A stretch of DNA of 64,000 nt from Acidobacteriota bacterium (lineage in GTDB: Bacteria; Acidobacteriota; UBA6911), in the NCBI GenBank assembly GCA_963664705.1, contig OY761556.1, positions 2,528,001-2,592,000 on the forward strand, written 5' to 3'. Each line of letters begins with the position of its first letter. Within the stretch, counting starts at the first letter, position 1. Position numbers and translations under genes: made by a program. Shown here one piece after another: positions 18,057-63,941 of the stretch. The notes beneath the pieces are model-generated. The model had not been told where the DNA came from. It ran no database searches and worked only from the letters and a program-made list of their open reading frames with translations.

Positions 18057-20051
18057 ATGTGGACCAGCCACGAAGATCCGGACGATAACGAGCTTCGCCA
18101 AGCTTGCGAGCGGGTCCGCTGGATTCTGGGCGGCGGCTTTCAAGGATCTGAGCTCATAGTGGCTCGGGCCGCGCTTAGGATTGATAGAACCTACACAAGC
18201 CACGTGCAGAATAAGAAACGTGGCGAGAGCATCAAAGCCAGGAACCCCCAGGTATCCCACCAGCCCCGTTTCACTCCGAAGCAAATACTCGAACTGCTTG
18301 TCATGAGCGAATTAGAGAAAGAGGAAAAGAAACAAGAGGCTCCCGGCCATGATTTGACGCACGACGACTGGATCAAGCGCCTCTGTAAGCATTTGATAAA
18401 GCACTCGCTGACCCACACTTCGTACCATGCTGCCGTGGCTGTCGGCCGGATCCTCTGTACCTATAAGGCAAATGAGATAAGAGGCATGTACCTGCTTGTT
18501 GCCTATGACCGGGCACTGAAGAAAAGCGACCCGGAGTGTTGCCGAGCCAAAAATAGTTTGAGAAGGAGCGTGGCGCATCGGTTTGACATCGACGAGGAAG
18601 ATCTATTCAAGGAAAGATCTTGTGACAGGCTCACAGACTCCGATCGGCGAGTCCCTCTGACTATTCAGTCGCTCGACCGTTTCGCGCCTGCTGGCGGCAT
18701 CATTCCCGAGGAATACTCATGGGAATCAAACGACAATGAGGATCCTCATGCAGATTCCGTTATCGAGGTGGAGCGTATGTCTCGATTCTTCAGAATCACG
18801 AATAAATTCAACCCACTCGCGAAGGCTGCCAATCTAAAGCCCTTCGAGGAATCCGTCAAAGAATTGAAAAACTGGTGGCCTTTCTCGCCAGACGCAGGCA
18901 CAAAAAAGAACGGTAACGATGGCGGCAATGGCAGCGACGGAGGTCAGTATAACTTAAAAGAAATTCGAGACCATGTGGCGCGCGAACGGAAACGGCGGCG
19001 CCGTGTTTCGCCGGGATCACTGACAATCCGCGTTGATGGAAAAGATCAAGCTACGATCAACCTGTCGGAACAGGAGCATGAGGCGACACTTGAGGCGGAT
19101 GCCACGATAGTCGATGTTGTCGGGCGAGATGACCAGGGGGACGTCGTCCTGGCGACTTACGTGCTTACTTACGATGATCAACCACGAACAGAGGAGTGGT
19201 CGGCCGATTTACCACGATCGCAGAAACTCCTATGCACTTTCGAGTACGACGAGGAATATCGGGTGCACGCTAGATTCACCCTGACAAACACCAAACAGAT
19301 CGTTGCAACGTTGCAAGACCGTGAATACCCTGCGAGCAGAATCTCAAGTGCTTTGAGTCCAGCCTGGCTTAAAGCGCAGATCGTTCTGAGTTTTGCTGGC
19401 AAGGCGCTCATATCCATGGCCGTAGTTCTGGCAGCCCTGATTTATGTAAATATGCAGCAAAGCCTGAATAATCAAAGGACCATGCACGATCTGAATTTGG
19501 CGTATCTTCAAACCTTCTCTCGGGACATTGGAAGTGCAGAGCCAGGCCAGCGCTTACGGGCCATAAGCGTCTACCGGGAAATGAGCCCGCAATTGGCCGC
19601 ACCGCTGGCGCCCATAGCTGCGGAAGCAGATCCAATGACGGCAACGAATCGATCCGTGGAGATTTTGGCGGACAGGTCGCAGGATCCTCAGACCCGGAGT
19701 GTCGCCGAGCAAAGTCGCCGGCGGATAATGGGCGATTTCCGCATCGAGGAGCCTTCATATGGCAGTAAGGTGAACGTGAGGCAGGTTGTTCGCGGGACCA
19801 CGCCATTTCCCGAAATGCGGCATTACATAATAGTGACTACGCCGCAGGGAGTGGATTTTGTTGCGGGCGAAGCCAGGGTGTCCGGTGATACATGGGAGGG
19901 GGTCGCAACTTTTGGATCTGCTGGAGTAGGTAGGGGAGAGAAGTTTTATGTTCGGGTTATCGCGACAAGGACGAGTTTACCAGAAGGCCCGTTTGCCGGG
20001 ATGGCGGATGCTATAGCCTCAGATTCAATTCCGGTGATGCGCGACCCGTGA
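18057..20051 (+). CDS. Single-pass membrane protein: ~430-aa cytoplasmic region plus C-terminal exported beta-sandwich domain
   Basis: TM ALISMAVVLAALIYV; last ~105 aa align by eye with the two neighbouring exported proteins. Confidence 0.8.
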   Translation: MWTSHEDPDDNELRQACERVRWILGGGFQGSELIVARAALRIDRTYTSHVQNKKRGESIKARNPQVSHQPRFTPKQILELLVMSELEKEEKKQEAPGHDLTHDDWIKRLCKHLIKHSLTHTSYHAAVAVGRILCTYKANEIRGMYLLVAYDRALKKSDPECCRAKNSLRRSVAHRFDIDEEDLFKERSCDRLTDSDRRVPLTIQSLDRFAPAGGIIPEEYSWESNDNEDPHADSVIEVERMSRFFRITNKFNPLAKAANLKPFEESVKELKNWWPFSPDAGTKKNGNDGGNGSDGGQYNLKEIRDHVARERKRRRRVSPGSLTIRVDGKDQATINLSEQEHEATLEADATIVDVVGRDDQGDVVLATYVLTYDDQPRTEEWSADLPRSQKLLCTFEYDEEYRVHARFTLTNTKQIVATLQDREYPASRISSALSPAWLKAQIVLSFAGKALISMAVVLAALIYVNMQQSLNNQRTMHDLNLAYLQTFSRDIGSAEPGQRLRAISVYREMSPQLAAPLAPIAAEADPMTATNRSVEILADRSQDPQTRSVAEQSRRRIMGDFRIEEPSYGSKVNVRQVVRGTTPFPEMRHYIIVTTPQGVDFVAGEARVSGDTWEGVATFGSAGVGRGEKFYVRVIATRTSLPEGPFAGMADAIASDSIPVMRDP

Positions 20052-20063
20052 AGGAGACATTCA

Positions 20064-20519
20064 ATGCGAACAAAACGATTGGTGCTGACTGCTGCCGTTC
20101 TTGGAATTATTTCCGCATTGGGATTGCAGGCGCTTCAGGTCGGGGAATCACGGGCTCTGACGAATGTCGAACAGACTCAGAGTCTAAAGATCTGGATAAC
20201 CGAACCGAAGAATCGAGAAACAGTCCCTGAAAGGCCATATGTCGAGGGAAAGGTATCCAATACGACTGCTGCCGTTTGGGTGCTTGTGCATCCGATGGAG
20301 GTTTCGGACTATTGGGTTCAGCCGCAGCTCACAGTGAATCGAGACGGCGCCTGGAGGGTTGGCATATATATAGGCCGGCCTGGCACCGTGGATGCAGGAA
20401 AGCGCTTTGAAATTATGGCAATCGCGAATCCTAAACGTCCGCTGAAGGAGGGAGATGTCTTGCGGTTCTGGCCGGACGCTGAATCAAAATCAGAGGTAGT
20501 TGAGGTGATTAGGAAATAG
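20064..20519 (+). CDS. Exported beta-sandwich (Ig-like) domain protein
   Basis: Signal peptide/anchor MRTKRLVLTAAVLGIISALG; GGAG RBS; paralog of neighbours. Confidence 0.85.
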   Translation: MRTKRLVLTAAVLGIISALGLQALQVGESRALTNVEQTQSLKIWITEPKNRETVPERPYVEGKVSNTTAAVWVLVHPMEVSDYWVQPQLTVNRDGAWRVGIYIGRPGTVDAGKRFEIMAIANPKRPLKEGDVLRFWPDAESKSEVVEVIRK

Positions 20520-20524
20520 AAGAT

Positions 20525-20701
20525 TCAGCAAGGAACATTGGTATGAAACTGCTCCCGGTCCGCGTCGGGATAGAGCGATTCCCTCGCAAACTCAAAGATC
20601 TGCCGTGAACTCTGGAAGATATTCCAGTTGCTCAGCACGGAGGCGTCTCGGACGAGTGAGATCCTCTGTCGGAAGATCCGATATTGATATGCGACGATCA
20701 T
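20525..20701 (-). pseudogene. Truncated RadC/JAB-like gene (N-terminal fragment)
   Basis: Manual translation MIVAYQYRIFRQRISLVRDAS...FARESLYPDADREQFH then stop; JAB HxH motif missing. Confidence 0.6.
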
Positions 20702-20998
20702 AGATTCCTCCCGTTTCTCGCAAATTGCTCGGCAACTGTCCTTGGGCTGTAATAAAAATCAAGCTCCGCGTGGTTCTCGATCAATTCCTCAATGGATATG
20801 TAGCCATACTCCTGACCATATCCGAGATCGGCAATTCCGAAGGCCTGGAGCTGTTTCCGCTCTCCGTCCTTTTCCGTGATGTACCAGTTGCAGTTTCCTA
20901 TGAGGTAGTGAAGGTAAATGACGGCCTGGTCTCCTTTGCCCTCCTATGAATCGGGTCAGTTTGTCCAATGCAGCTTTCGCTTCCTCAAATCTGTCCAT
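20698..20998 (-). pseudogene. Frameshifted DUF2958-like mobile-element gene
   Basis: Start frame MDRFEEAKAALDKLTRFIG; second frame KGDQAVIYLHYLIGNCNWYITEKD...QAFGIADLGYGQEYGYISIEELIENHAELDFYY. Confidence 0.65.
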
Positions 20999-21450
20999 TC
21001 CAAGTTCCTTTCTTATGAGTTTGCGGGCGCCATATTGTCGGGAGCCTCACGTAATGACCGGAAGAATGCTGAAAGAAGGCATGTGGTTGAAACTGGAAGG
21101 CGCAGGTGTCCTAGATCCTGTCGTACAAGTAGTTGATTGTGCAACAGGATAGATGCAATTCACGCCCTGCCGGGCTGCAAAGACACGATTCATTTTCCAA
21201 GACTCCATATATGCGCCAGCCAACGCTTTCAGGGATCATTGAATAAAATTTTCGAAAAAAGTGAGAATTTTTGCGAATTCCGGTAGGCGCCGACCATTCT
21301 TTTGCGTTCTTGATAACTGAAATAACCTGCAATCTTGGTTTTTCAAGTTACGGATTATTTGTTTCGGGACTGGCTTGCATAGCAATGGGTCCAGGTTGGG
21401 AGTCGGGTCCATTGCTTTCGCTTTGGCTCAGTACCCCTGGAGGCAGAAAC

Positions 21451-21873
21451 ATGAAAGCATTCTGGGTTGGCCTTGCGCTTGTTCTGTTTGGTTGCAACGC
21501 CCTGGCTCAATCGAGCCTGAGAATTGATAAGCTCGAACGGAAAAATATCGAGGAAGCAGGCACGACCGTCGGTTACAGCGGGTTGATAGAAGGAACAACC
21601 GACGATCCTGATCAAATAATCTATGCGCTAGTCCATGAGCCGCACCTGAAGGCCTGGCGGCTTTTCCCCGCGACCATTCACGAAGAAGGGGGCGCTTATC
21701 GCTGGAGCGCCCTGTGCCATTTCGGCAAATCGGATGGCACCGGGATTGGCGCATCCTATCAGGTCCGGGTCATGGCATTGGACCGGAGCCGAACCCTGAC
21801 CGAAGGCTTGCCCGCCAAATTGTCTCCCACCACCCTCAAGTCAAACGTGATTGTCCTGAAACGCACAAGATAG
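21451..21873 (+). CDS. Exported beta-sandwich domain protein directly upstream of Rhs
   Basis: Signal peptide MKAFWVGLALVLFGCNALA (possible lipobox LFGC); GGAGG RBS; ends 16 bp before Rhs start. Confidence 0.85.
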   Translation: MKAFWVGLALVLFGCNALAQSSLRIDKLERKNIEEAGTTVGYSGLIEGTTDDPDQIIYALVHEPHLKAWRLFPATIHEEGGAYRWSALCHFGKSDGTGIGASYQVRVMALDRSRTLTEGLPAKLSPTTLKSNVIVLKRTR

Positions 21874-21889
21874 CGCGGAGAACTGGGCC

Positions 21890-24800
21890 ATGACAAAACG
21901 AATCCTACTCATTCTGATTGCATTCCTGACTTTCCCGATCGCAACAAGAACCGCTCTTATTGAAACCGAATTAACCTATGACTGCATGAATGTGCAGGGG
22001 ATGTATTCATTTGTTCCCTATCTGGGCGGACTTGGACAAATCAACCTGGTGAACGGAAATCTTGTTTTCAGCAGGCCGTTGCCGACGCGACCGGGCAGAG
22101 CCGGCTTGGATCTGTCCCTGTCATTGGCCTATAACAGCAAGATCTGGACGCGAACCGGCACCACGCTGATGGGGTTGTCCGAACCGGGAAGTTCCGTGGG
22201 ATTGGGGTGGCGGCTTGGATTTCCATACCTTGTCCAGGGGAGATCCAGCTATACACTTGTCATGTCCGACGGCAGTTCGCACGAGATTGCCGATTATGGA
22301 CGCGGCGACTGGAGGTCTGTCGATTCCACCTATATACGGCTGACGCCGGGCAATCCGAAGGTGGCGACGATGGTCGGAGGCACAAAGCTGTTTTTTGGAA
22401 ATACCGTGGGGGCCAATTCCTACGCAACGGAAGTTCGGGATCGAAACGGAAACCAGATATTTGCAACCTATGTGCCCGGCACCGGGAAACTGGCCTCGAT
22501 TGACGACAGCCTGGGAAATTCCTACGACACAACCACCTACCCTTACACAGCCGTGCCGCAGATGACTTTCTTCTATGGCGGGGATGGATTTCTCAGCAAC
22601 ATCCGGGTGATGCATGCGAGCTATCCCATATGGATTAATTTTCAATACGCGACACCGTCGCTTTCGCCGTCCTTCCCGTCTCCTTATACGGTTCAGAGCC
22701 CGGGCCCCAATGAAAAGGTGTTGAGTTCGATATGGATGACCGGAATCAACGGAGGCCTGAGCAATACGCGCCTGGGCCAATTGTTTCAATACAATGCGTT
22801 TGGCGAGCTGGCGTCGGTCACCGACTCGGTCAGCGAATACGGCTATGATTACAATACCTATCAATGGACACTGATTTCATCCACGAGCAGGGACAGAGTT
22901 TCCTATTCCTATACGACAAACAGCATCTATGATGGCGGCACTCCAAGCTGGCGCCCGCAGAGGATGGTTTCCCAGAAAACCGAATACGTAAACAACAACG
23001 GCATCGTAACCAGTTCCACGTGGTCGATTGGATACAGCGTGGACCAGACCAAATCGAATCCTTCCTCGGTGGAGGTAGCCTCCGAAATCGACGGACGATC
23101 GGTTTACAGTCTGAACTACACCTCATCGGGATCGAACTGGTCTGACGGCATGCCGATCTCGGTCACGCGGAAAACCTATAACGGGCAGACTGTTTTGAGG
23201 ACCCAGAGCTATTCCTGGAGTCAGGACGATACGCTGAAGACTTTTGTTCTGAACCCGCGAATCACGTCTGCCACAACCACGCTGGACGATGGGAAAACGA
23301 CGCAAACGGCAACAACCTACGCCGCCGACGGGACCGGCAATGTGAAGGAAACCGTCGAAACCGGGTTCAGCGGTTCGGTGCTTCGAAGAACGGCAATGGA
23401 GTACTGGCACGAGACGCATCCGGAATATGTTGCGCAGGGATTGACCAACCTGGTGTCGGCCGTATCGACAAGAAACGCAGGCAATGTCGAGCTGACCCGG
23501 ACACAGACCGCCTATGACGAATATGGCGCTTATCCTTTGGTGGCGATGGCCTATAACCCGGTCAATCACAATTCCGGATACTGGACAGCATATTTGACGC
23601 GGGGAAACGCGACCAGTGCGGGAGCGCTGTACAAGGAGCAGTCCCGATGGGTTATGTCTCATGCCCAATATGATATCGCGGGCAATGTGGTGAGGAAGGT
23701 TGATCCCAAAGGCAACCAGTCCACGGTTTCCTATACCGTCGGTCCCTATCCGGCCTCGTCGACCGATGCCATGAATCATACGACGCAGTACTCGTGGGAG
23801 AGTTTCCTTGGTACGGCTTGGACCGGGAATCTGTATTCGACGACGGACCCCAACGGCGCCCAGGTTACCAATGCCTATGACGGGCTCAATAGAAAAGTAA
23901 ATCAATCGGCGCCGACCGGAAATTCGTATTTTTCTTATGATGATCAGGATTACCAGGTAACCACCAACAACTCATCGGGTTATTCCTATTTTGACAGCAA
24001 TCCTTCGGGCAACACGATCAAAACGCAGAAGGAGATCCCGTCGGAAAACAGCATTTATGAAAAAGCGGACTACGATGCTCATGGCCAGGCCACGAAGAAG
24101 TGGCTGCCCAGTCGTGGAGGCACGGCGGCGTTTACGACCTACAGCTATGATGTGCTGGGCAGGATTACCAGCGTAAGCCCGGCAACGGGCGGCCAGATAA
24201 CGTATCAATATGTGGGAAACGTAACCACAGCGACCGATCAGGAGGGACGAAGAAAAAGGACGGAACACAATGAGTCCGGGCAGATTCTAAAGGTGATCGA
24301 GGAGGATTCCAACGGGAACTGGGGACCTGAGACGGTATATTCCTATGATATTCCGGGCCGGCTGATACAAATCCTGCAGGGGGTTCAAGTGAGGACCTAT
24401 GGATACAACAGCCTGGGCAGAAAGATAGCGGAAACCAATCCCGAGAGCGGAACGGTAACGTTTGTCTATGACGATAACGGGAACGTGACGCAGAAGACGG
24501 ATTCCAGGGGTGTCGTCACGGGCTACAGCTATGATGCCCTGAACCGGTTGCTGGTTACGTCCTATTCGGACGGTACTCCATGGTCGCTGATGAGTTACGA
24601 TGAATCGAGTTCGAGTCTGATAGGTCTGATAACGAACGGGCAGGGGCGGATGACGAGCGCCTGGACGGTCAACAGCAGTCTTCAGATTACAGGAGAGAGT
24701 GTCGGTTATAGCTGGAGCTACGACCAGGGGGGCCGGGTGACGCAGCAGATCATGCGTATGGACTCCACGAATTATCCTGTAAACTATAACTACACACCGG

Positions 24801-26707
24801 CTGGCTGCGGATGCTCGAAGAAGGACCTACAAAGTATGACCTATCCTGACGGCAATGAGATCACATACACGCGAGATCCAATCGGACGAGCGACGGGAAT
24901 AGCAGATACTGTCATTTCCGGGACGAGCCGAACCTATGTCACGGATGTCGACTACGCGCTGGTGGATGGATCGGTTTCGCTGATTTCGTATGGAACCAGC
25001 TCGGAAGAGCATGTCGCGGATAGTTACGGGAGGCTTTCGGTCATCCGGATAACGGTTCCGAATAGCATGTGGGGGACTCCCCACGAATATGACCTGAATT
25101 ATTCGTACACGCTGTCCAACCGGATCTCTCGGGTCGACTACACGAAAAAGGATGCTTACGGCAACAGCCTGGAATCGAAATGGTCGACGTATGGGTACGA
25201 TCGATTGGGGCGGCTGTCGGCGGAAACTCTGCAGTCGGCGAATGGAACGGAGTGGAGCGGCAACTGGAGTTATGACAGGTATGGAAATGTGAGTGGGACC
25301 GCCAATGACCAGAACAACCGGCTTGCAGCGTATGCATCTTACTACGATCAGTCGGGCAACCAGCTTCAGGATGCGGCCAATTCGTACCTTTACAATGCCA
25401 ACAATATGATAAGGCAGGCGAATCGCACGTCGGATAGCGCGTTACTGGGAGCGTACCGGTACGATGCACTGGGCCGCAGGGTGAAGAAGAGCTGGAATTA
25501 CTTTTATTATGGAGAGCAGCGCTCGGTCAGCTATTCGTATGTTTATGGGAACGGCAATGAAATCCTTGCCGAATACAAGGTGGAGAGCGCGTCGTGGCAG
25601 ACGTATGAAAATACATATACGAACAATATCTATATGAACTCGGCGCTTGTTGCGCGGCGCACCAGGGGCTATACGAACAACAGCTTTGGCTACACGGTGG
25701 TGGATAACCTCAAATGGCCGGGAAGGAATCACCGGCAGGAGGAGATTGTTACGATCGGAAGCCAGATCGTTGATAGTGGCTTTTATTCCAGGGCATTTGG
25801 TTCCGGCGGCTCGGATCAATATCCCGGCCACAAGGTGGATGAAGAGACAGGTCTGAAGGACTTCGGGTCGAGGTATTACAATACATCGCTGATGCGATGG
25901 ACCTCTCCGGATCCTCTAACTGCCCATATCTTTGATCCTCAGTCGCTGAACAAGTACGCGTACGTCAGAAATGATCCGGTGAACAGAGTCGATCCGAATG
26001 GCAGAGACTCTATATTCCTTGATCCCTACGCCTACAGCAATGCCTTATTTGCATTCGGATTTGCCGAAGCTGCTGGAACGGCTACTGAAGAGGAATTCAA
26101 TACCTGGCTTTTCGAGACTCTGACGCCACTTTCATTGAATACCTCATTTGACTCTGACAGCATGACAATAAACATCAGCCTTGCCGTAATGGCTCCTTTT
26201 TATCCTGAGCCGGTTTTTGATGCGGCGACGGGTTTGTTGATGGATCCAACCGGATATATTGAACCGGGCATACAAGACGCGAGTTTTGGATTCGTGACAA
26301 CGGTCGTACCTATGGTGCGGGGAGCGGTTGGTATTGGAGTGGCGGCGGGAAGAGGTGTTATCAGTAGCATTTCTTCCTCAGTTTCCACAACTGAAATTGG
26401 TGCAATAGGGACTCGCCTGATTTCAGACGAAACTGGTGCAATTACGATTGGGACTACGGAAGTGCACCACTTGCTTCCGACACAATTTAAGACTTTTTTC
26501 AAAGCAGCGGGACTTGATATTGAGGAATATACTCTTTCAATGAGTAAAGCAGGACATCGACTCCTTCCAGATGGCCTCCATACGGGTACGGGAGCAGACA
26601 ACTGGAATGGCGCATGGAAAATTTTTATTGATAGTAATCCTCTAGCAACAAAACAGCAGATTCTTGATCAACTTAATATCATGAAGGCGGAATTTGGATT
26701 ACCCTAG
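21890..26707 (+). CDS. Rhs/YD-repeat toxin with signal peptide and DUF2380-like (HNH-type nuclease) C-terminal tip
   Basis: Signal peptide; INLVNGNL..PGRAGL..YNS..GLGW; YD repeats; core end YAYVRNDPVNRVDPNG; tip HHLLPTQFKTFF..HR..GLH..WN. Confidence 0.93.
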   Translation: MTKRILLILIAFLTFPIATRTALIETELTYDCMNVQGMYSFVPYLGGLGQINLVNGNLVFSRPLPTRPGRAGLDLSLSLAYNSKIWTRTGTTLMGLSEPGSSVGLGWRLGFPYLVQGRSSYTLVMSDGSSHEIADYGRGDWRSVDSTYIRLTPGNPKVATMVGGTKLFFGNTVGANSYATEVRDRNGNQIFATYVPGTGKLASIDDSLGNSYDTTTYPYTAVPQMTFFYGGDGFLSNIRVMHASYPIWINFQYATPSLSPSFPSPYTVQSPGPNEKVLSSIWMTGINGGLSNTRLGQLFQYNAFGELASVTDSVSEYGYDYNTYQWTLISSTSRDRVSYSYTTNSIYDGGTPSWRPQRMVSQKTEYVNNNGIVTSSTWSIGYSVDQTKSNPSSVEVASEIDGRSVYSLNYTSSGSNWSDGMPISVTRKTYNGQTVLRTQSYSWSQDDTLKTFVLNPRITSATTTLDDGKTTQTATTYAADGTGNVKETVETGFSGSVLRRTAMEYWHETHPEYVAQGLTNLVSAVSTRNAGNVELTRTQTAYDEYGAYPLVAMAYNPVNHNSGYWTAYLTRGNATSAGALYKEQSRWVMSHAQYDIAGNVVRKVDPKGNQSTVSYTVGPYPASSTDAMNHTTQYSWESFLGTAWTGNLYSTTDPNGAQVTNAYDGLNRKVNQSAPTGNSYFSYDDQDYQVTTNNSSGYSYFDSNPSGNTIKTQKEIPSENSIYEKADYDAHGQATKKWLPSRGGTAAFTTYSYDVLGRITSVSPATGGQITYQYVGNVTTATDQEGRRKRTEHNESGQILKVIEEDSNGNWGPETVYSYDIPGRLIQILQGVQVRTYGYNSLGRKIAETNPESGTVTFVYDDNGNVTQKTDSRGVVTGYSYDALNRLLVTSYSDGTPWSLMSYDESSSSLIGLITNGQGRMTSAWTVNSSLQITGESVGYSWSYDQGGRVTQQIMRMDSTNYPVNYNYTPAGCGCSKKDLQSMTYPDGNEITYTRDPIGRATGIADTVISGTSRTYVTDVDYALVDGSVSLISYGTSSEEHVADSYGRLSVIRITVPNSMWGTPHEYDLNYSYTLSNRISRVDYTKKDAYGNSLESKWSTYGYDRLGRLSAETLQSANGTEWSGNWSYDRYGNVSGTANDQNNRLAAYASYYDQSGNQLQDAANSYLYNANNMIRQANRTSDSALLGAYRYDALGRRVKKSWNYFYYGEQRSVSYSYVYGNGNEILAEYKVESASWQTYENTYTNNIYMNSALVARRTRGYTNNSFGYTVVDNLKWPGRNHRQEEIVTIGSQIVDSGFYSRAFGSGGSDQYPGHKVDEETGLKDFGSRYYNTSLMRWTSPDPLTAHIFDPQSLNKYAYVRNDPVNRVDPNGRDSIFLDPYAYSNALFAFGFAEAAGTATEEEFNTWLFETLTPLSLNTSFDSDSMTINISLAVMAPFYPEPVFDAATGLLMDPTGYIEPGIQDASFGFVTTVVPMVRGAVGIGVAAGRGVISSISSSVSTTEIGAIGTRLISDETGAITIGTTEVHHLLPTQFKTFFKAAGLDIEEYTLSMSKAGHRLLPDGLHTGTGADNWNGAWKIFIDSNPLATKQQILDQLNIMKAEFGLP

Positions 26708-26790
26708 AGGGAGAGTCCGTAGATGAAATCTTAGAAGCATAATAGTAGAGCGAACTGCTGTCTTTCTATTTGAAGGCCATAAATGCAGAA

Positions 26791-27474
26791 ATGAAGATGA
26801 CTATGAAACAACGCATCTCGATTCTGAAGTCGAGCGGTAACCTGAGCCTTTTAGGAACGTGGAACAGTAGTGTTTCCTTAACATCAATCACTTGCAATTT
26901 GAATCCGGGGCATCAAAGGGTAGGGCCAAGAGTAGGGCAATTGAGTGTTGAATTGAATAAAAAAGTCATGAAAAATCAAATTGCCTGGACTTGGTACTCC
27001 AATTGTTTGGTGTCGCAAAACTCTCTTGAAGTGTTTCGAAATGCATCATTAACTGGGTTCGATATTCAATCAGTCGAAATCACGCAAAAAGGGAGCATTG
27101 TCGACCACAGTTTCAGCGAATTACTGGTCACAGGTTGGGGAGGAGTGGCGCCTGAAGCATGTGGTGTAAAACTCTTGGAATCATGCCCCGCCTGCGGTCT
27201 TCTTCGGTACAGTGCCGTTACGGATTGGAATCATCTTATTGATTTGGATGCGTGGGATGGTTCAAGTATTTTTATGGTATGGCCATTGCCCAAGTATATT
27301 TTTCTAACCGAAAAAGCCGCAGAGATCATAAAAATTCTTGGTGGCGACAGCACTGACGTTATACCTATTGGAGACCTTGAACCACAGAAGGGAGAATTAT
27401 CTCCAGGGCGATTGGGCAACTGGCTTTCAGAACACAGAATTGAGGAGCTGAATGTAGACCAGACAATTCGATAG
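26791..27474 (+). CDS. Putative cognate immunity protein, CXXCG-motif family
   Basis: Directly after toxin, AT-rich, CPACG motif, no signal peptide; start uncertain (26770-26803). Confidence 0.75.
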   Translation: MKMTMKQRISILKSSGNLSLLGTWNSSVSLTSITCNLNPGHQRVGPRVGQLSVELNKKVMKNQIAWTWYSNCLVSQNSLEVFRNASLTGFDIQSVEITQKGSIVDHSFSELLVTGWGGVAPEACGVKLLESCPACGLLRYSAVTDWNHLIDLDAWDGSSIFMVWPLPKYIFLTEKAAEIIKILGGDSTDVIPIGDLEPQKGELSPGRLGNWLSEHRIEELNVDQTIR

Positions 27475-27656: not shown

Positions 27657-28091
27657 ATGAGTCGGCCAGCTCTATACCTTTTGTATCTTTTGTTTGCCCC
27701 AGTCTGTTTAGGACAAACAATAACGGTTCGTATCATTGACGTAGAAACTGGGAATCCATTGCCAAGTCAGCGAGTTTCAATATCCCTAATGTATGAAAAA
27801 GGGGATAAAACTCCTGCTAACTACATATCGCCTGTCATCCTAATTACAGACGATAAAGGATCCGCTCAAATTAGCATACCCTCTCCCGCACCAAGGTATG
27901 TAAATTTTCTCGTTGCGCTGAGTTCTGAGTGGTGGCAGTCAGAACGCGACCAGCGATTTACCCTAAAAACAAAAGAATTGATGCAAAAGGGGGCGGTTGG
28001 GAGGATGGTAAGTGAGGGAAGGAATGAGACTGCCCTAACGGCAAAACCGAGAGAAGTGCTTATTCTAACTCGGCCCCTTGTGTATCCTTAA
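27657..28091 (+). CDS. Exported carboxypeptidase-regulatory-like domain protein; probable orphan immunity
   Basis: Signal peptide, ITVRIID.ETGNPLP...TDDKG.A; AGGAG RBS. Confidence 0.7.
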   Translation: MSRPALYLLYLLFAPVCLGQTITVRIIDVETGNPLPSQRVSISLMYEKGDKTPANYISPVILITDDKGSAQISIPSPAPRYVNFLVALSSEWWQSERDQRFTLKTKELMQKGAVGRMVSEGRNETALTAKPREVLILTRPLVYP

Positions 28092-28178: not shown

Positions 28179-28298
28179 GCTTACGTCAGAAATGATCCCG
28201 TGAATGGGGTTGATCCAGATGGGAATATAGCAAGGCAGGTCACCTATATCTCCGTTCCCATCTACTCGTCTTGTGAGTATTGGGATTCAAATTGGGGT
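28179..28298 (+). pseudogene. Orphan Rhs core-end/C-terminal cassette cut by IS3
   Basis: AYVRNDPVNGVDPDG, nucleotide-similar to the main Rhs core end near 25960-26002. Confidence 0.8.
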
Positions 28299-29538
28299 TG
28301 ACCCGAAACTGTTGACACGAAGTTAAGCGGCTTTGGCAGATTCCTCATAGGCTTCAGGGCTCCGATAGCCCAGAGCCGAGTGAAGCCGCTGTCGATTATA
28401 AAACACTTCGATATACTCAAAAATATCTGATTGCGCCTCCTTTCTCGTTTCGTAATTTCGATGATAAATAAGTTCTGTTTTCAGCGTGGCAAAGAAACTT
28501 TCCATAACAGCATTATCCCAGCAATTGCCTTTGCGGCTCATGCTGCAAAGAACTCCGCTAGATTTCAATAACTTCTGGTAATCCCCGCTGGCGTATTGGC
28601 TGCCTCGATCTGAATGATGGAGCAGACCTGGTGATGGGTTACGTTTGAAAAAAGCCATGCACAGAGCTCTTTCAACCAGATGTCGACAAATCCGGCTACC
28701 CATGGCCCAGCCAACGATCCTTCTTGAGTACAGATCCATCACCGCGGCCAGATACAACCAGCCTTCTTTTGTTGGGATGTATGTGATATCCGCCACCCAA
28801 GCTTTGTTTGGCATTTTCACCGCAAATTCCCGGTTCAACACATTTGGAGATATCGGGAAATTATGTTTTGAATCTGTCGTAACTCTAAATTTCCGTTTCT
28901 GTTTGCCTTGGATCCTATTCTCGCGCATTAGCCTGGCAATACGATTCCTGCTGTGTAATTTGGACACTGCCCGCAATTGCGCATGAATTCTGGGACTTCC
29001 GTACGCGCCCCGGCTTGCCCGATGAATTGCCCGAATTGCTAGTAATAATCGGCTGTTCTCTGCATTCCTCGGGCTCTCGGGCCGCTTGAGCCAAAGGTAG
29101 AATCCGGCTCTGGATACTTCAAGCACTCGACACATCAGCGATATCGTAAATTCATGCCGATGCGCTTGAATGAAGCCATACCTCATTTGGATTCTTTGGC
29201 AAAGAACGCCGTCGCTTTTTTTAATATATCGCGCTCCTGACGCAGTAAGGCATTCTCGCGCCGTAGGCGACGGAGTTCTTCCTCCTCTGGTTTCAAATGC
29301 CCAGATCCCGGAAATGCTTGAGAGGTGTTTGCGAATTCCTTTTTCCAACGTGTCAGCATGTTTGCGTTTATTCCCAAATCTCTGCTGGCCTGTGCAATGG
29401 TGATATTTGACTCGGTGAGCATACGAACTGCTTCGATTTTGAATTCCTTCGTGTACTTCCTTCGCTGTTTTTCCATGACACACCCTCTGGTGGACTAGAA
29501 TGTTCCACCCTTTTCAGTGTGTCAACGGAATCGGGTCA
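28299..29538 (-). mobile_element. IS3-family insertion sequence (1240 bp)
   Basis: Terminal IRs TGACCCGAAACTGTTGACAC / TGACCCGATTCCGTTGACAC, TG...CA ends, orfA+orfB; no clean target duplication. Confidence 0.95.
28323..29476 (-). CDS. IS3 transposase OrfAB (-1 frameshift)
   Basis: OrfA 29183-29476 HTH; OrfB DDE motifs [20 protein letters not shown] in -1 frame; A7G run at 29215-29222. Confidence 0.93.
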
Positions 29539-29707
29539 TGGTTAAATCGAGAAGCATGGATAACGGAAGTTACCTTATCCGGTATCTCATTGAAACCAGC
29601 CTTTGTAGATGAACCTCTGAGAGCCAGATTTGGAAAACTGGACAAGGGGATAAGTGCTAATCTTGCCCAAACTGAAGGCCGGCCTTCGGGGAAATAACAA
29701 ATTGGAG

Positions 29708-41730: not shown

Positions 41731-41809
41731 CTAAACGGTACCGGTGATCGTATGGGATATATGAGAATTCATTTGGGATAATGCAAACAGACAAATGCGG
41801 AGAAGCCTT

Positions 41810-53529: not shown

Positions 53530-53533
53530 CAGT

Positions 53534-57359: not shown

Positions 57360-57548
57360 CTACATTCCAGTTGGATCCGCTTATTTTTGCGGATTATTAC
57401 GTCCATAAGCGTAGGCATTCCAGCTTTGCGCATCATCAATAGTGGCACCGGTATCGGCCGGGTCCACGGAAAGGAATCTTCCTTGTGGTGAAGAAAAGTA
57501 TCTCGCACCGAAGAAGTCCAAGCCTGTTTCGGCATCCCGTTCTTTGCC
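57360..57548 (-). pseudogene. Orphan Rhs core remnant
   Basis: GKERDAETGLDFFGARYFSSPQGRFLSVDP...QSWNAYAYGRNNPQK*ADPTGM* with in-frame stops. Confidence 0.9.
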
Positions 57549-57584
57549 GGAAATTGCTGACGCAATAAACCGGAAAGGATTGTA

Positions 57585-58040
57585 CTACTTATGCTTAGCC
57601 GAGAATTCTTTGACGTTCAGTACCTTTTGAAGAATAAATTGATTTTTCCACAAATCCGACGCTAGTTTTTTATCTCCAATTGTCTTTTTCCCGTTCTTTA
57701 GTTGGTAAATTGAGTCAAATTTTCCTCGAAGTGTCACGCCAATTTTGACATTCTCACCCGATAGTAAACGCAGAGACCACAACTCATATTTCTGATATTC
57801 CGCATCTCTTTCCAGAGTAAATGCAGGTTTGGGTTCAGCCTTTTCCGGACTCAATAGCGGTATACAGTGCTTATATTTTTCATCGCATATGCTCATTCCG
57901 TGATATTCATGAAGGAGGAAGCCTTGAACCGTCACAATTCTATGTGAAAACTCATATGGATTACTTACCAATTGCACGACAGAACGTGTGTTTTCGATAA
58001 TCTGACCAGTTAGCTGGCATAACAAAATAATCCAGAGCAT
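57585..58040 (-). CDS. Putative exported immunity protein of the second Rhs
   Basis: Directly downstream of toxin, GGAGG RBS, hydrophobic N-terminus, AT-rich. Confidence 0.75.
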   Translation of the reverse strand: MLWIILLCQLTGQIIENTRSVVQLVSNPYEFSHRIVTVQGFLLHEYHGMSICDEKYKHCIPLLSPEKAEPKPAFTLERDAEYQKYELWSLRLLSGENVKIGVTLRGKFDSIYQLKNGKKTIGDKKLASDLWKNQFILQKVLNVKEFSAKHK

Positions 58041-58063
58041 TCCTCCTCCATTCTGATTTTATG

Positions 58064-61000
58064 CTACCTTCCCGAGCCATAAGTCTCCACGGCTCTCTTT
58101 GTATTTTGGTCCACCGACTTCATTCGCTCTCCTTCAGCATACGCCTTTGCTTTTGGTATGTTCTTGTCAACTTGAAGCCATGACGGATTCCACAGACCAT
58201 ACATCGAAAGTCTATTGAAAGCTTTGTTAACATACGATTGAGTATCAAATCCGGTATGTTCATAAGCGTATATTTGCTTGTCAGACATATATTTAGGACC
58301 ATAGCGTCTGTCGGCAATATGAGCCCCTTCATGCGCCACGATGGCTGCATTTTCAACACTCGGATCAATAGGCTTTCCAGCCATCCTTTGTGATCGCGTG
58401 CCTGTTTTGATTGCGTCAATATCGAATCTGACTGTAACTATTCCTGGTCCGCCAGTAACTCCTGCATACCCTCTTGGCACAGTCCCAAATTCGACAATAA
58501 CTCCATTAAAATCGTTTTCCTTTCCATACGTATCTAGAACTTTCTTTATGGAGTTATATTCATCGGAGCCTTCTTTCAGTTTGTTCAATGCGGTTTCCAT
58601 CTCCGCTAACTGCGTTCTGAACCATGTCTGATTTGCTTGGCATTGGCTATCGGTTATCTCGCAACCAACCGCAAAATTGAACAAACCATCAGGATCGGTA
58701 AAGGTAAAGGGAGCATTAAACGCATAGCTGTATCGATTCCATGATTGAGGATTGTTGGGATGCCCACTATTCAGCAAAGGGTCAGGACCTAGGAACCTGC
58801 CCTGGACCCCTGAGAAGTACCTAGCCCCGAAGTAATCCAACCCCGTTTCGGCGTCCCGTTCTTTGCCAGTAAATTTCTGCGGTTCCCGGCTGGTGATCTG
58901 CACGTCAGGGTTCGACAAATAGCAGTTCACTTGACTTCTCGTATTATCCGCCGAGCTTATCATTCGTCCAAAAGGCAGATAATCATTGCACTCCAGCGGG
59001 GTTCCCGTATCCGACGTGACTGCCCGGACGCTGCCCAATATATCTGATGTCAACCATGTCGCACCAGTGCTTGTCGGAGCCTGAGTGGAGTTTTCGGCTG
59101 CCAGCCGGCCCAGAGCATCATATAGGTAATATGTGTAGATCGTCGAACCGCCGTATGTCCAGGTCTTCTTGATTCGACGTCCTTCTCCATCGTAAGCGAT
59201 GGAACCGGATCCTGGACCTGAGATGCTTATGTTTCGATTTTCCGCATCGTATCCAAGCGTAAAGGACCCATACTGGGTTTGATTTCCTGAGGAATCATAG
59301 CCCCCCGGAATATTGAGGCGATTTGTCGAAGTAATGTAATTGTTGAGGCTTGCCGGTTCTCGCGAATCGGAATGCGCCAGGTTTACGGTCGTCACCGCCT
59401 GGTTGCCCCATCGATCATAGCTGAATGTCTGAGACCATGCTCCCATTTCGCTTGCAGTTGCCAATCGATCAAGCGGATCATAGGTAAATTCCTGGTAGTA
59501 GCTGTATGCCAAATTACGGGTTGTTCTTTGGTTTTGCAAATTTCCGTTGTTTTGCGTGGCATGATAATTATAGTCCAACCTCAGCCGTTCCTCTCCGCCC
59601 AGCGTCGTACCCAAACGGTAATAAGTCGTTTCTCCCGGTGTGTGGTACTCGCGTGTATCATAGAGGCCATTGCCCAATCGCATTCGTGCTATCCGTCCGT
59701 CAGGCGCATACGTTGAAAACGGAAAGTCAGCAATCACGGTCATATCCGTGTACGTCCTTGCGGAGCTGTAAACCTTACTATTTCGCCCCATGTTCTCAAC
59801 ATCATAATTCACGGTGCGTCCCGAAGGATAGGTAATGTCTTTTAATCCGCCATTAACGTACCAATGATAACCGAACGTAAACTTCCCATACCCGTTAATC
59901 GTCTGGCTGCTGCTCAAGACATTCCCAAATTCGTCATAGCTATCATATGCCATTGATGCCACATTCGAACTGATTGACTTTAGCCGGCCTACATTTGGAG
60001 AAACTGATGATCCTGCCAGATAATAACTATACGTAACATTTGGCGTGGTTGGATTATCGCTGTAGGTTTTGCTGACAATCCGATGCAACGGATCATAGGC
60101 AAATGTTGTCACTATATTTCGGGCGTCAGTCCGTGTCTGAAGGTCTCCACTGTCGAGATAGGCATAGGATGCGCTGCCGCTCTCCGGATTCGATGTCGAA
60201 CGCAAACGGCTTAAGGAACTGTAATTGAAGGTCCTGGAAGGCTGCGTTCCTTGAGTGACCTGAGTCAAGTTATCCAGGGGGTCATAAAAATAAGTCGTGC
60301 TGTAATTCAGGCCGGGGCTTGGGTCCTCCACTACCTCCAGCATTCGCCCCAGACCATCGTGCCGCTGCTTGCGTACTTTTAGCGCGGGATCGGTAACGGT
60401 TGTCCACTCAGCGTCATAGGCCTTTGTTGTCACGCCTGTGCGGGTGGTGGGATTGGTTTGCTCACAATTGGCAGGTTCGCTGCTCCCTTTGAAAATCCCA
60501 ACCTTTGATACGCGGCCAAGCAGATCGTATTGCGTGCATGTCCATTCCAATGTCGGATCATTAAGCGTTCGATAGGGAGTGCTGGTGATTACCCGGCGAC
60601 CGCCCTGGGCATACAAATCGTGTGTAGTCGTATAAATATAGTTCGGGACACCATTGACCGTCTTTTCCAATTTCCGAACCATATTTGCCCGGCCCACCTG
60701 ATCATAATTCGTAATGGTTTGTGATACCTGATCCGCATTCGTCCGCAAATCGCTTATGCCCATAACGGAGCGATCAGCGTCATTATAGATTGAAGATGTT
60801 TGTCTCAGGAGGTTCCACGTGCCGGAAACAGACTTCTTATCGGCAGTGGTCAGCTGCCGCCCTACGTTATCGTAGGTATAGAAAGTCCCCATGCCATTAT
60901 CCAGATCCTTCTTGGATGCAAGTGCTACCCCTACCGACAGAATGTTGTTGGATTGATCACGAATCATCCAGTCGTATTCCCAGGAGCGATGCACACTATT

Positions 61001-63148
61001 TGGATCGCCTTGATCCACCCGTGTTACATAAAAACCACTGTTATAGGTAATGTCGGTACGCACCTCAGGGTCATTGATATTTGTCACATCTCCGATTCTC
61101 GTCACATTGCCGTATGAATCATACGTCCGTGACAACACCTGCGCGTTGGAACCCGACAGCAGTCCAAGCCCAGGCAATCCGGGTGATTTGACGCTGTCCC
61201 ATCGTGCCTCAGCCGTAACATTTCCATTTGTATAGGCGTTTCCACCCTTTGCTGGATCATACGAATACTCGGTCGCAGCGTAGGGAATAAGCCCTTCCGC
61301 ATCCGAAGAAACCTTCCTGCGTTTAAGAGCATTCAAACGCCGCGCAGACAACTGCGCCCATATATTTGGATTGTGCGCATGCCAGTACCCATTGGCATCA
61401 TCAGGTTGTGAAAGCGTTACATAATAATCATAAAACGTTTTTCGTCTTATGATTCCCCCCGATTCGTCGGGATAATCGGTCCAGTCGTGTTCTGTTTTGG
61501 TAAGCAAATTTCCATTTTTGTCATAGGTGTAATCGACTACTGCGGTCTTCGCAGGCGTTCCCAAAGAATTTCCCACAGTCGTCGCCTCGCGATACACATA
61601 CGGATTATTAAGAATTGAATATGATCCATAAACGCTATTCTGCGCCCATTGCCGCTTTTGAACCGAACCGCTGGGTCCCTCCACCCAATTCACGAGTCCG
61701 CTGGTCCAATAGGGCGTATAATTTTTTGTGTCAAAATGACTGGTCGTTTCCCCGCCGTCAGGTGCAGTGACTTTTGTGCTCGTTAATGTATATAGAAAAG
61801 TCCACGTATCAATTGTCCCATCGTGCGTAATCTGCTTTTGCGAGACACTATTATCATTTGCTATGCAATCAGCATCCCAACTATTGAGACAGGATGCAGG
61901 CTGTTCCAGCCGGTATGAGTACCCATATTGCGAGCCTGTCGGCATGCGCATATAGTTGAGCAAGCCCCATCCATTATCGCCATCACTGTAACCGAATTTG
62001 TAGCTGTTCCAGACCGATGGCTCCTGGCCAAGAGTGACAGGTGATGCCAGTGGCAATTGAATATATTTTACTGTCCAGAACCCGCCACCATACGCCAACG
62101 TCCGATCATAGGGAGGGGGAGCCGTAGGAGCGTACGTATATCTGCGGTTCAATGATCCATACTGAATTGAATTCCAGTCAACGGCCGTCGTAATCGATCC
62201 ATTTGGTCCCGGAGCGCTTATGGTATCCCGTAGCCAAGTGTCGGTGCTGGTATTCGCATCGGTAACATTGTAGCTGATCCTGATCTCGTGTCCGCCGTCA
62301 TCCTGAATGGATGTATAGGGATCGCAACCGTCTGGCCAACTGTGGCAATAATTGCTGATCCTGATCCTGTTATTTTTCGAATCATAGGAATCTACGGTTC
62401 CGTTAACCGGAGAAACAACAACACGCCGGCCATCCGGGTAATACACATACCAGTCCTTCTCCCGCCAAGCCGTTGTCCCATCAGCGTAGATTTCAACTTT
62501 AAGGTAACTCCCATCTGTCGTGTAATACGTAAGCCAGCCGGTCACGACCTGCGGAGGAGTCTGGTAAGGGCACGTAATGTCTTTGCCTGCAGGATTAATT
62601 GGGATAAAACCATTGGTCGATGTGTACCCCCCGTAGGTCTCATAGCCTCTCAAATAGAGGATATGCATGCTGCCATCAGGCAACAACACCCTCATTCGAA
62701 CCAATCCTCTCCCTCCATACTGGCAGCCGGTGGCTTCCTGCATTTCATCTTCCAACCAGTAATTATTGGCATTGTATGTCCATCCACCGCTTAAGGTAAT
62801 TGGAGCAACCACTTTGACAGGAACATCAACGTATCTTTGGTTTAATGTATCCCACATGCGTTCTACGGCAGCATGGACATCATTAATGTGCGAATCATAT
62901 TGAAGATTCAGGTCGAATCCTATCCCTCCCCTCCCCCGTGGTATTGACGCGAGCGGGATCTGAAGATTCAATTTGCCGCTGACCGTATCGATATTGTCAA
63001 CCGGGCTGCTGAGTTGATCAGCAGTGGGCATAAATCCGCGGGGCGGCTTCGTATCGACGTTATATAAATCCTGGGCAGTTGCCAATGGCAGGAAACCAAT
63101 GATAAGCATAAGGACGAACAACGTGCTGAATCTTGATCGGCTGAACAT
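58064..63148 (-). CDS. Rhs/YD-repeat toxin with signal peptide and zincin metallopeptidase tip
   Basis: Start 63148 with GAGGAG RBS; signal peptide ending ATA-Q; core KFTGKERDAETGLDYFGARY...DPDG; tip AHEGAH...YE. Confidence 0.93.
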   Translation of the reverse strand: MFSRSRFSTLFVLMLIIGFLPLATAQDLYNVDTKPPRGFMPTADQLSSPVDNIDTVSGKLNLQIPLASIPRGRGGIGFDLNLQYDSHINDVHAAVERMWDTLNQRYVDVPVKVVAPITLSGGWTYNANNYWLEDEMQEATGCQYGGRGLVRMRVLLPDGSMHILYLRGYETYGGYTSTNGFIPINPAGKDITCPYQTPPQVVTGWLTYYTTDGSYLKVEIYADGTTAWREKDWYVYYPDGRRVVVSPVNGTVDSYDSKNNRIRISNYCHSWPDGCDPYTSIQDDGGHEIRISYNVTDANTSTDTWLRDTISAPGPNGSITTAVDWNSIQYGSLNRRYTYAPTAPPPYDRTLAYGGGFWTVKYIQLPLASPVTLGQEPSVWNSYKFGYSDGDNGWGLLNYMRMPTGSQYGYSYRLEQPASCLNSWDADCIANDNSVSQKQITHDGTIDTWTFLYTLTSTKVTAPDGGETTSHFDTKNYTPYWTSGLVNWVEGPSGSVQKRQWAQNSVYGSYSILNNPYVYREATTVGNSLGTPAKTAVVDYTYDKNGNLLTKTEHDWTDYPDESGGIIRRKTFYDYYVTLSQPDDANGYWHAHNPNIWAQLSARRLNALKRRKVSSDAEGLIPYAATEYSYDPAKGGNAYTNGNVTAEARWDSVKSPGLPGLGLLSGSNAQVLSRTYDSYGNVTRIGDVTNINDPEVRTDITYNSGFYVTRVDQGDPNSVHRSWEYDWMIRDQSNNILSVGVALASKKDLDNGMGTFYTYDNVGRQLTTADKKSVSGTWNLLRQTSSIYNDADRSVMGISDLRTNADQVSQTITNYDQVGRANMVRKLEKTVNGVPNYIYTTTHDLYAQGGRRVITSTPYRTLNDPTLEWTCTQYDLLGRVSKVGIFKGSSEPANCEQTNPTTRTGVTTKAYDAEWTTVTDPALKVRKQRHDGLGRMLEVVEDPSPGLNYSTTYFYDPLDNLTQVTQGTQPSRTFNYSSLSRLRSTSNPESGSASYAYLDSGDLQTRTDARNIVTTFAYDPLHRIVSKTYSDNPTTPNVTYSYYLAGSSVSPNVGRLKSISSNVASMAYDSYDEFGNVLSSSQTINGYGKFTFGYHWYVNGGLKDITYPSGRTVNYDVENMGRNSKVYSSARTYTDMTVIADFPFSTYAPDGRIARMRLGNGLYDTREYHTPGETTYYRLGTTLGGEERLRLDYNYHATQNNGNLQNQRTTRNLAYSYYQEFTYDPLDRLATASEMGAWSQTFSYDRWGNQAVTTVNLAHSDSREPASLNNYITSTNRLNIPGGYDSSGNQTQYGSFTLGYDAENRNISISGPGSGSIAYDGEGRRIKKTWTYGGSTIYTYYLYDALGRLAAENSTQAPTSTGATWLTSDILGSVRAVTSDTGTPLECNDYLPFGRMISSADNTRSQVNCYLSNPDVQITSREPQKFTGKERDAETGLDYFGARYFSGVQGRFLGPDPLLNSGHPNNPQSWNRYSYAFNAPFTFTDPDGLFNFAVGCEITDSQCQANQTWFRTQLAEMETALNKLKEGSDEYNSIKKVLDTYGKENDFNGVIVEFGTVPRGYAGVTGGPGIVTVRFDIDAIKTGTRSQRMAGKPIDPSVENAAIVAHEGAHIADRRYGPKYMSDKQIYAYEHTGFDTQSYVNKAFNRLSMYGLWNPSWLQVDKNIPKAKAYAEGERMKSVDQNTKRAVETYGSGR

Positions 63149-63170
63149 TGTCACTCTCCTCCTCACTCGT

Positions 63171-63941
63171 CTAGAATTGGCTTGCGTCCAAGGCAGGCAC
63201 ATTCTCAATTGCTGTCACTGTAAATGAATAAACCAGTTTCCCACCCTCGTAATGCTCAATCACGGCCGGATATGCAGATCCGTCTATGCTTCCCCACATT
63301 GAAAACCGAGTCTCTATCTTTACAGGCGGCTTAACGCTTCGGTCATAATATTGGGTCCGCTGCAGGTATCCCGTTTTTGAATCATAGTAATAGGTTTTTG
63401 TTCTAATCGTTTTGTCCTGACGGCTTCGAACAGGAATAGTCACTTCAAAAAGGTCATAGCGCGGCCCCTTGTAGTCCAGCACAAGTGCAGGATCGGGCCC
63501 AAAACCCCGACCGATTATTCGGACTGCTGCCGATTCTTGTATCGATTCCAGCATTCCTTCCGGAAAGTCCATGACAAACGTTTCCAGTAATGCCTCATCG
63601 CTTTGGCGGGAGGTTATCCCCTTCACATCTTTGCCATTGAAGGAGATCGCTGTCCCTTGTCCCTTAAAACCTTCCAGTCGGACCAGTCCTGGCAATTGGT
63701 AGATCACCCGAGTCGCCGTCGCCTTGCCATCAGCATCTGTAAACTCGCCGATATAGATCGTCGTTTCCTTGCCGGAAGTTTTCACCCGGTCTCCCAGCGC
63801 TCCCATCTGCAATGCAAATACACTGGGTATATTGGAATAATACTTCCCCGTATTCGTATTATTTTGTTCCGAATTCACAAAAGGGCAAAACATGGTCGTG
63901 ATGAAAAGAGCAGCTAGCCAGAATCGATTCTTCATCTCCAT
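63171..63941 (-). CDS. Exported protein upstream of Rhs (possible LolA-like fold)
   Basis: Signal peptide; YYYDSKTGYLQR...ETRFS.W..IDG..YP beta pattern; GAGG RBS. Confidence 0.7.
   Translation of the reverse strand: MEMKNRFWLAALFITTMFCPFVNSEQNNTNTGKYYSNIPSVFALQMGALGDRVKTSGKETTIYIGEFTDADGKATATRVIYQLPGLVRLEGFKGQGTAISFNGKDVKGITSRQSDEALLETFVMDFPEGMLESIQESAAVRIIGRGFGPDPALVLDYKGPRYDLFEVTIPVRSRQDKTIRTKTYYYDSKTGYLQRTQYYDRSVKPPVKIETRFSMWGSIDGSAYPAVIEHYEGGKLVYSFTVTAIENVPALDASQF

Follow-up and report, generated by a model that had tools for sequence, protein, structure and literature searches.

How toxins with a YD-repeat shell and no evident delivery machinery reach their targets and open is stated to be unresolved in passages of PMC13018210 and PMC8636562, and this question is raised by a stretch of 64,000 nucleotides (the window; genome positions 2528001-2592000 of a single 6.89 Mb contig) from an Acidobacteriota host that is a diderm, with secretins as well as a T6SS (type VI secretion system) and a T2SS (type II secretion system) cluster in its genome. 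Positions are those of the window, and beyond its edge extended coordinates are used (genome position minus 2,528,000). Two intact, full-length Rhs genes with RHS_repeat (PF05593) and TIGR03696 matches above cut-off flank the lysis-tail-head block of a prophage and converge on it: Rhs1 (21890-26707, + strand; 1605 amino acids (aa) of YD shell, core and tip) and Rhs2 (58064-63148, - strand; 1694 aa from an ATG behind a strong ribosome-binding site). Each is preceded by an exported gene and followed by an immunity-like one, and orphan core remnants lie at both, one broken by stop codons (57361-57554, - strand), the other located after a second small gene and cut by an IS3 element (28179-28225). 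To this extent the initial annotation was borne out. Its view that the two modules share the same architecture was not, as Rhs1 and Rhs2 are 24.6% identical, their upstream genes are unrelated (a LolA fold before Rhs2, a low-confidence beta-sandwich before Rhs1) and only Rhs2 lacks the hairpin preceding the Rhs core; each module travels as a passenger of its own, and the two do not form a paired phage system. We propose, with a probability of roughly 0.6, that in these two passenger operons the Rhs2 shell is one hairpin short and that a separately encoded adhesin inserts this hairpin, yielding a two-subunit toxin that requires neither T6SS nor phage lysis. Contact between the donated hairpin and the shell is likely, judged from sequence and gene order.

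Passages of PMC8636562 and bioRxiv 10.1101/2024.02.26.582050 describe the Rhs shell as an uninterrupted strip of hairpins that a C-terminal protease plug closes. Two hairpins precede the Rhs core in Rhs1, in the chromosomal copy Rhs3 and in Protein Data Bank entry 8h8b, and one does so in Rhs2. Rhs1 keeps its pre-core hairpin in cis (25622-25660); in Rhs2, the corresponding gap falls between 59093 and 59059, upstream of the core at 58873-58853. DPxG-type cleavage motifs are located at 25991-26005 (residue 1368) in Rhs1 and at 58696-58682 (residue 1485) in Rhs2, where the missing hairpin, about 120 residues before the cleavage site, would be positioned near the plug end. The Rhs2 operon extends beyond the window to 66941 and includes a gene at 64775-66049 (- strand) for a hairpin-donor adhesin with a signal peptide, an Rhs-type hairpin (65944-65903) and BACON and Ig-like domains. 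Just after its leader, this donor starts with a variant of the motif (K/R)EY(I/V)YxxG(R/K)L(L/I)AxE (family form), which resembles the last shell hairpin ahead of the Rhs core. In eight other genomes, too, an exported gene upstream of the LolA-fold gene begins with this motif, the tails being unrelated; the hairpin is the sole conserved part of donor proteins. A profile built from nine standalone donor genes only yielded matches in 30 of 401 phylum genomes; its 30 best loci comprise 18 standalone exported genes, 11 hairpins in cis just before an Rhs core and one case of noise. Because this standalone-gene profile also matches in-cis hairpins before Rhs cores, the donor hairpin is homologous to the shell hairpin.

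By-eye reading of 67 long Rhs frames showed that the hairpin is missing from all 23 that have a same-strand standalone donor upstream, as it is from three shorter frames with a donor, and that 39 of the 44 long frames without a donor keep it, the remaining five lacking it. When loci were picked on the Rhs core alone, a donor was found at four of six hairpin-less and at none of 31 hairpin-bearing Rhs; six of these 31 have less than 1 kb of upstream DNA, and the set omits three unclassifiable loci (L047, L057, L244). Within the Rhs2 family, 40 of 63 proteins were readable at the hairpin (23 were unparsed and stand outside the counts), of which 34 are without it, two carry it and four carry it together with an insert of 130-330 aa. 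Fused forms, comprising these four Rhs2 relatives and one other Rhs, hold the hairpin in cis followed by an insert of 130-1000 aa, which in one case contains NPCBM and galactose-binding (carbohydrate-binding) domains. Genome G330 serves as a natural control, combining the LolA-fold gene with a hairpin in cis and no donor gene. The donor family itself falls into 327 clusters at 50% identity. The motif is present in 145 of 150 listed clusters, in 139 of these behind a hydrophobic leader, and none of the listed members with the motif continues into an Rhs core strand within 60 residues. BACON, fn3, F5/8, laminin G, CBM6, PA14, FG-GAP, TIG or similar domains occur in 21 of 30 hand-picked long members. 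BACON repeats dominated the output of a homolog search made with the N-terminus of the donor, and an Atlas look-up with the donor gave no match.

These associations would also arise, in a reading that we consider rather unlikely, from ordinary Sec-exported Rhs morons with a shorter, self-sufficient shell, the hairpin gene being a co-inherited relic or an adhesin binding something else, for instance the LolA-fold protein or an outer-membrane factor. Passages of PMC3482391 list Sec-exported RHS toxins as a class for all bacteria, hairpin loss and operon may be co-inherited by descent, and the donor tails of this genus are in many cases short and without features. A self-sufficient shell leaves unaccounted for that the only conserved donor part is homologous to exactly the missing element and that fused forms place adhesin domains at the same spot; moreover, donors are found without the LolA-fold gene and G330 shows the reverse pairing. 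Several points nevertheless weigh against the two-subunit toxin. Forty of the 67 loci were selected by means of the hairpin profile, the set as a whole spans about five families with kin not independent, and the hairpin state was classed by eye, the automatic spacing measure being too noisy. The five hairpin-less Rhs without a scored donor upstream also favor a self-sufficient shell; of these, two are broken at the 5' end, one is located at the edge of a contig, one is preceded by an exported gene that contains the hairpin internally, and one (L112) stays unexplained. No Rhs lies within 10 kb of one donor remnant (L227), many donor-Rhs operons, in several of which the donor abuts Rhs, do without the optional LolA-fold gene, and a shell shortened by one repeat could close unaided. 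The Rhs1 leader has an atypical cleavage site, and most tips match no known family. Finally, GspD of the T2SS, above cut-off in 22 of 30 genus genomes, is below it in G330, G087 and G422, operon carriers from other families, and because of this the T2SS is an exit candidate in this genus only and no general exit.

In the two-subunit reading, all subunits would cross the inner membrane via Sec, and the shell would fold around the tip in the periplasm, likely aided by the LolA-fold protein. The donor hairpin would complete the shell rim beside the core and expose the BACON and Ig-like domains on the exterior, supplying the receptor-binding part that is missing in cis from Rhs2; conserved shell sequence starts right at the beginning of mature Rhs2, in which no binding domain was seen. 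Surface delivery would take a host route, T2SS in this genus and otherwise vesicles or another path, and the adhesin would aim the cocoon at a surface glycan or protein. The core would cleave the tip, with the HExxH tip of Rhs2 acting in the target periplasm and the nuclease-like tip of Rhs1 in the cytoplasm, compartments that match the immunity genes, exported for the former and cytoplasmic for the latter. An ancestral hairpin-plus-adhesin insert, still seen in the fused relatives, would have become a separate exported gene whose product docks back after Sec export, and the phage would gain lysogens that kill or exclude non-lysogen kin. Were this so, donor removal might open the shell beside the core and release the toxin, and the donor would be a candidate receptor-binding subunit and a candidate latch for YD-shell toxins lacking obvious delivery machinery. 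We see an even chance that the design represents a widespread split-Rhs class, in which an excised hairpin-adhesin docks by strand complementation and may act as a latch, targeting and tip swap independently, and prophages and comM islands spread the operons; if true, this would provide a function for a family of 327 clusters and for the LolA-fold family in a little-studied phylum.

A related arrangement was seen in relatives from the same taxonomic class (L048, L049, L050, L051, L052, L054), where a hairpin-keeping signal-peptide Rhs lies beside a different exported neighbor with two YD repeats at its start and an Ig-like or sorting-type tail at its end. Such a neighbor may represent another type of donor that supplies a shell strand in trans.

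Bacillus WapA is an example of the Sec-class RHS polymorphic toxins. In the passages of Zhang et al. 2012 (PMC3482391) on the Sec/T2SS class, these toxins share signal peptide, RHS repeats, variable tip, a downstream immunity-like gene and orphan cassettes with the modules described here; the table given there lists no signature neighbor, whereas here donor and LolA-fold gene precede an Rhs whose shell is one hairpin short. Photorhabdus Rhs1, a T6SS effector, has the same continuous hairpin shell, C-terminal protease plug, encapsulated tip and autocleavage motif according to passages of PMC8636562. A YD shell completed by a second polypeptide, as proposed here, is described in the same source for Tc toxin B/C, but the Tc partner extends the barrel at its N-terminal end, whereas here one internal near-core hairpin would come in trans. 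Bacterial teneurin-like proteins, as presented in passages of PMC13018210, are likewise signal-peptide YD toxins with variable adhesion domains, which unlike in Rhs2 are kept in cis. No description of a split or in-trans Rhs hairpin, of Rhs in Acidobacteriota or of Rhs with LolA-like or BACON partners was found in the literature searched, in which few subscription journals are represented. As a setting, the phage is ordinary, and the split design is the new part.

Both Rhs had been annotated with Sec-type leaders, which holds for Rhs2, where the leader is canonical; that of Rhs1 is a strong hydrophobic stretch that fails the cleavage-site rule, and it may be an uncleaved anchor. Leaders were scored by a strict heuristic of our own, a looser earlier version having fired on 816 of 2090 background open reading frames (ORFs). 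The strict version was passed by 44 of 54 intact-start homologs of Rhs2 compared with 269 of 2090 long genome ORFs, and the Rhs2-family alignment displays a variable leader followed by a conserved mature start.

Host secretion systems were searched for a route, as the initial annotation had suggested, and both T6SS and T2SS are present with no Rhs linked to either. The host T6SS parts comprise TssA, C, E, F, G, K, M, Hcp, ClpV, PAAR and VgrG. That this machinery carries the Rhs proteins as cargo despite their leaders is extremely improbable. As annotated, the window is free of T6SS genes (none of the 59 ORFs scanned matches a T6SS family), and neither the T6SS cluster at 5.29-5.32 Mb nor an orphan VgrG at 6.83 Mb has an Rhs beside it. 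Neither Rhs has PAAR or another T6SS leader domain, and both have hydrophobic leaders, of a cleavable type conserved in the Rhs2 family. Compared with T6SS Rhs effectors as covered in the passages cited above, the modules thus carry a Sec leader, lack any PAAR, EagR or VgrG link and have exported instead of cytoplasmic accessories. TssC was matched in 11 of 30 genus genomes, and carriers without a TssC match include four of ten genomes with a LolA-fold gene followed by Rhs (G429, G010, G330, G422) and G014, the one other genome with the Rhs1 accessory-Rhs pair, all of them 95-100% complete. T6SS delivery is therefore unlikely on the basis of these sequences. T2SS genes are located elsewhere in the chromosome, with no gspG beside these Rhs; this differs from the gspG-linked Rhs of Xanthomonas and Ralstonia, for which, in passages of bioRxiv 10.1101/2025.05.08.652813, a non-T6SS exit from a diderm, possibly via T2SS, is likewise predicted. 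A search for type IX secretion tails matched nothing anywhere, controls included, and is hence uninformative.

The description of the system as prophage-borne and T6SS-independent stands in its first part, both Rhs lying between attL and attR, and probably in its second, given the lack of T6SS leader domains and linkage and the carriers without TssC. Such a combination is already known from a diderm: passages of PMC10433427 report signal-sequence, T6SS-independent Rhs4 and Rhs5 on Mx-alpha prophages of Myxococcus xanthus, acting in kin discrimination in a host that also has a T6SS, as does the host here. The Myxococcus proteins are about 4000 aa long compared with 1600-1700 aa here and belong to a different phylum, and those passages mention no hairpin-donor or LolA-fold partner.

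Both Rhs operons are passenger cargo of the prophage. The genome holds three full Rhs and one orphan core match. Rhs3 is 95.7% identical to Rhs1 over residues 1-1382 (143 synonymous versus 59 non-synonymous codon changes in the scaffold), carries a different, HExxH tip and lies within a 7 kb island at comM whose borders are a 483 bp repeat of the 3' end of comM. G014 also has the accessory-Rhs1 pair, and Rhs2-type operons adjoin hflX/comM in six genus genomes and occupy non-phage settings in other families too. Rhs cores were found in 28 of 41 relatives and in 139 of 251 phylum genomes, a count that takes in the unpublished G063, on which no other claim rests. A survey of related prophages, also suggested with the initial annotation, identified two closest near-complete phages, G432 (98% complete) and G433 (84%), with TerL 61-67% identical and without Rhs cargo. 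GC contents of the modules are 0.51 and 0.48 versus 0.57 for the late block. Viral contigs were scanned with each of the two Rhs scaffolds and with the LolA-fold alignment, searches whose reach is close relatives, and no relative was returned; run against the genome collection, the LolA-fold alignment gave a single weak match that is uninformative.

This distribution bears on the suggestion that the toxins exit by phage lysis, i.e. that prophage induction frees periplasmic cocoons as a phage-timed weapon, which we judge improbable. Both operons lie inside the prophage; that of Rhs2 shares its strand with the late genes, is located between the genes for replication and those for packaging, and is followed by no terminator-like site beyond chance expectation (a promoter and terminator scan found nothing above chance level), and a YD-repeat toxin beside phage genes is described for APSE3 in passages of PMC8579659. 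Lysis cannot serve the chromosomal copies of the same modules, because those lie without phage genes, and phages G432 and G433 lack Rhs. Moreover, Rhs1 is on the strand opposite to the lysis genes, the Rhs2 operon has its own regulator, and signal peptides would be needless. Toxins released through the holin-endolysin route are signal-less and co-oriented with a dedicated lysis cassette; in contrast, the Rhs here have leaders, Rhs1 is inversely oriented and chromosomal copies are without lysis genes. The APSE3 toxin (PMC8579659) and MuF toxins (PMC5576092) are temperate-phage toxin genes as well, while the modules here are not phage-specific. No MuF domain was matched among the 59 window ORFs.

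Several observations accompany these copies. The comM island (L002, genome 3531795-3539896) comprises the accessory gene, Rhs3, a likely immunity gene and a double helix-turn-helix gene with no integrase seen, a remnant of the LuxR gene of the Rhs2 operon lies upstream of it, and other genus members carry Rhs operons on the other side of comM. In G014 (C4, 100000-142000; L042, L043, L148), a long array of Rhs1-type orphan tips and small genes is interrupted by insertion sequences and repeated primase-recombinase pairs. Between their head and tail genes, phages G433 and G432 (L064 and L061) harbor a block of genes that, from a reading of the sequences, resemble those for glycosyltransferases and methyltransferases.

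The tip of Rhs2 carries an HExxH motif (58333-58319), kept in all five tip homologs found, and is a predicted metallopeptidase; HExxH tips gave no toxin family match. The next gene (57585-58040, - strand) encodes a predicted immunity protein for this tip with a short hydrophobic leader. Elsewhere in the genome it has one clear homolog (36% identity) and a weaker one, among small exported genes beside IS3 copies. Two such arrays of small exported or membrane genes beside IS3 (L036, genome 5744009-5760000; L037, 6719500-6724000), each with a homolog of this gene, look like orphan immunity arrays, and the former adjoins an integrase.

The Rhs1 tip matches DUF2380 (PF09533) with 38 bits against a Pfam cut-off of 26.3 and TIGR02269 (SitA6) below cut-off; it is a predicted DUF2380/SitA6-like nuclease. 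It is followed by a predicted cytoplasmic immunity protein (26803-27474, + strand, the start could be 26770) with a CXXCG motif, no leader and a weak SitI6 likeness (TIGR02264, E 0.01, far below cut-off). The SitA6/SitI6 pair of myxobacteria (TIGR02269/TIGR02264) shares the DUF2380 tip and the CXXCG neighbor, although both TIGR scores are below cut-off here and SitA6 is a lipoprotein toxin, whereas the Rhs1 tip is fused to 1370 aa of Rhs with no cysteine after the leader. The gene after it (27657-28091, + strand) encodes an exported 144 aa protein, likely an orphan immunity protein; it looks like one left from a tip swap, because an 85% homolog directly follows the different tip of Rhs3. A short orphan Rhs-core remnant (15 codons, 28179-28225) and the start of a tip (28179-28289, + strand) come next, cut at 28290 by an IS3-family element (28290-29548, - strand) with 99.9% identical copies elsewhere in the genome.

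That the products are instead non-toxic surface adhesins, envelope-modifying enzymes or a superinfection-exclusion layer of the prophage is very unlikely. Adhesin-like donor tails, HExxH tips without a toxin family match and immunity calls based on position plus a single weak profile match (TIGR02264) would agree with it. It is at odds with the 41 parsed tips of the Rhs2 family, which fall into 27 clusters including lysozyme, HNH and colicin E3-type domains, and with small downstream genes in immunity position that were swapped together with the tip between Rhs1 and Rhs3, as well as with the orphan cores after both operons.

Upstream of Rhs2 and conserved directly before Rhs2-type genes, the gene at 63171-63941 (- strand) encodes an exported protein whose model (predicted local distance difference test, pLDDT, 88) has a LolA-type open beta-barrel fold, with a Foldseek E of 4e-7 and, versus 3bk5, Z 15.4 and a root-mean-square deviation of 3.3 over 188 aligned residues; top matches in Foldseek and VIA-align are all LolA/LolB-type. 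It is preceded by a second exported gene for 260 aa (63976-64758, - strand, 3' end 63976-64000 in the window), which may be LolA-like, judged from a motif, by the donor gene and, at the upstream end of the operon, by a LuxR-type regulator (66264-66941, - strand).

On the left side, the Rhs1 accessory (21451-21873, + strand) is an exported 140 aa protein predicted as a beta-sandwich. Its low-confidence model (pLDDT 65) gave no fold match at E<=0.001, and an Atlas look-up returned unnamed clusters only; the comM island and G014 likewise have this type of gene directly 5' of their Rhs1-type genes. An exported 151 aa protein (20064-20519, + strand) with a hydrophobic leader is a possible distant paralog (22% identity in alignment), and a 664 aa membrane-spanning protein without a family match (18057-20051, + strand) is weakly similar to both at its C-terminus in an alignment by eye. 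These three successive genes (18057-21873) may share a small beta-sandwich domain, although pairwise BLAST similarity was not significant; in the first, which encodes the membrane-spanning protein and occupies the place where a repressor usually lies, this domain would form the periplasmic end.

Prophage limits were determined from the attachment repeats. The 60 bp attL (11705-11764, + strand), the 3' part of tRNA-Ser(CGA) identified by ARAGORN, recurs as a direct repeat with 100% identity at extended 69996-70055, outside the window. As the last 60 tRNA-Ser bases recur identically there, the prophage spans 58.3 kb with both Rhs inside, and the second Rhs is not chromosomal; this settles a check proposed with the initial annotation. 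The worry that the contig might be chimeric was eased for one side. A single short-read contig of 40,509 bp covers 29517-70025 in two runs of one sample, possibly the source of the genome, and since it spans the right, Rhs2 side of the prophage, that side is not a joining artefact; the Rhs1 side lies outside this read coverage. A second sample yielded scattered pieces of the region (24% of words) and was not used as support.

The remaining prophage genes comprise a tyrosine integrase following tRNA-Ser (11795-12955, - strand; PF00589), a late block assigned via Pfam and PHROGs (29742-56666, - strand) with putative lysis genes, tail, tape measure, capsid, portal, terminase, methylase and nin-type genes, and, beyond the window, replication genes (extended 67258-69670) followed by attR. 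The att site lies between the integrase (11795) and the replication genes, all on one strand, and integration thus splits the early region. A second prophage region with terminase and portal genes and without Rhs is located at genome position ~1.04 Mb. Within the head/tail operon, an outer-membrane beta-barrel gene (47211-47816) and a small exported gene (41795-42088) lie on the opposite strand, in positions typical of morons.

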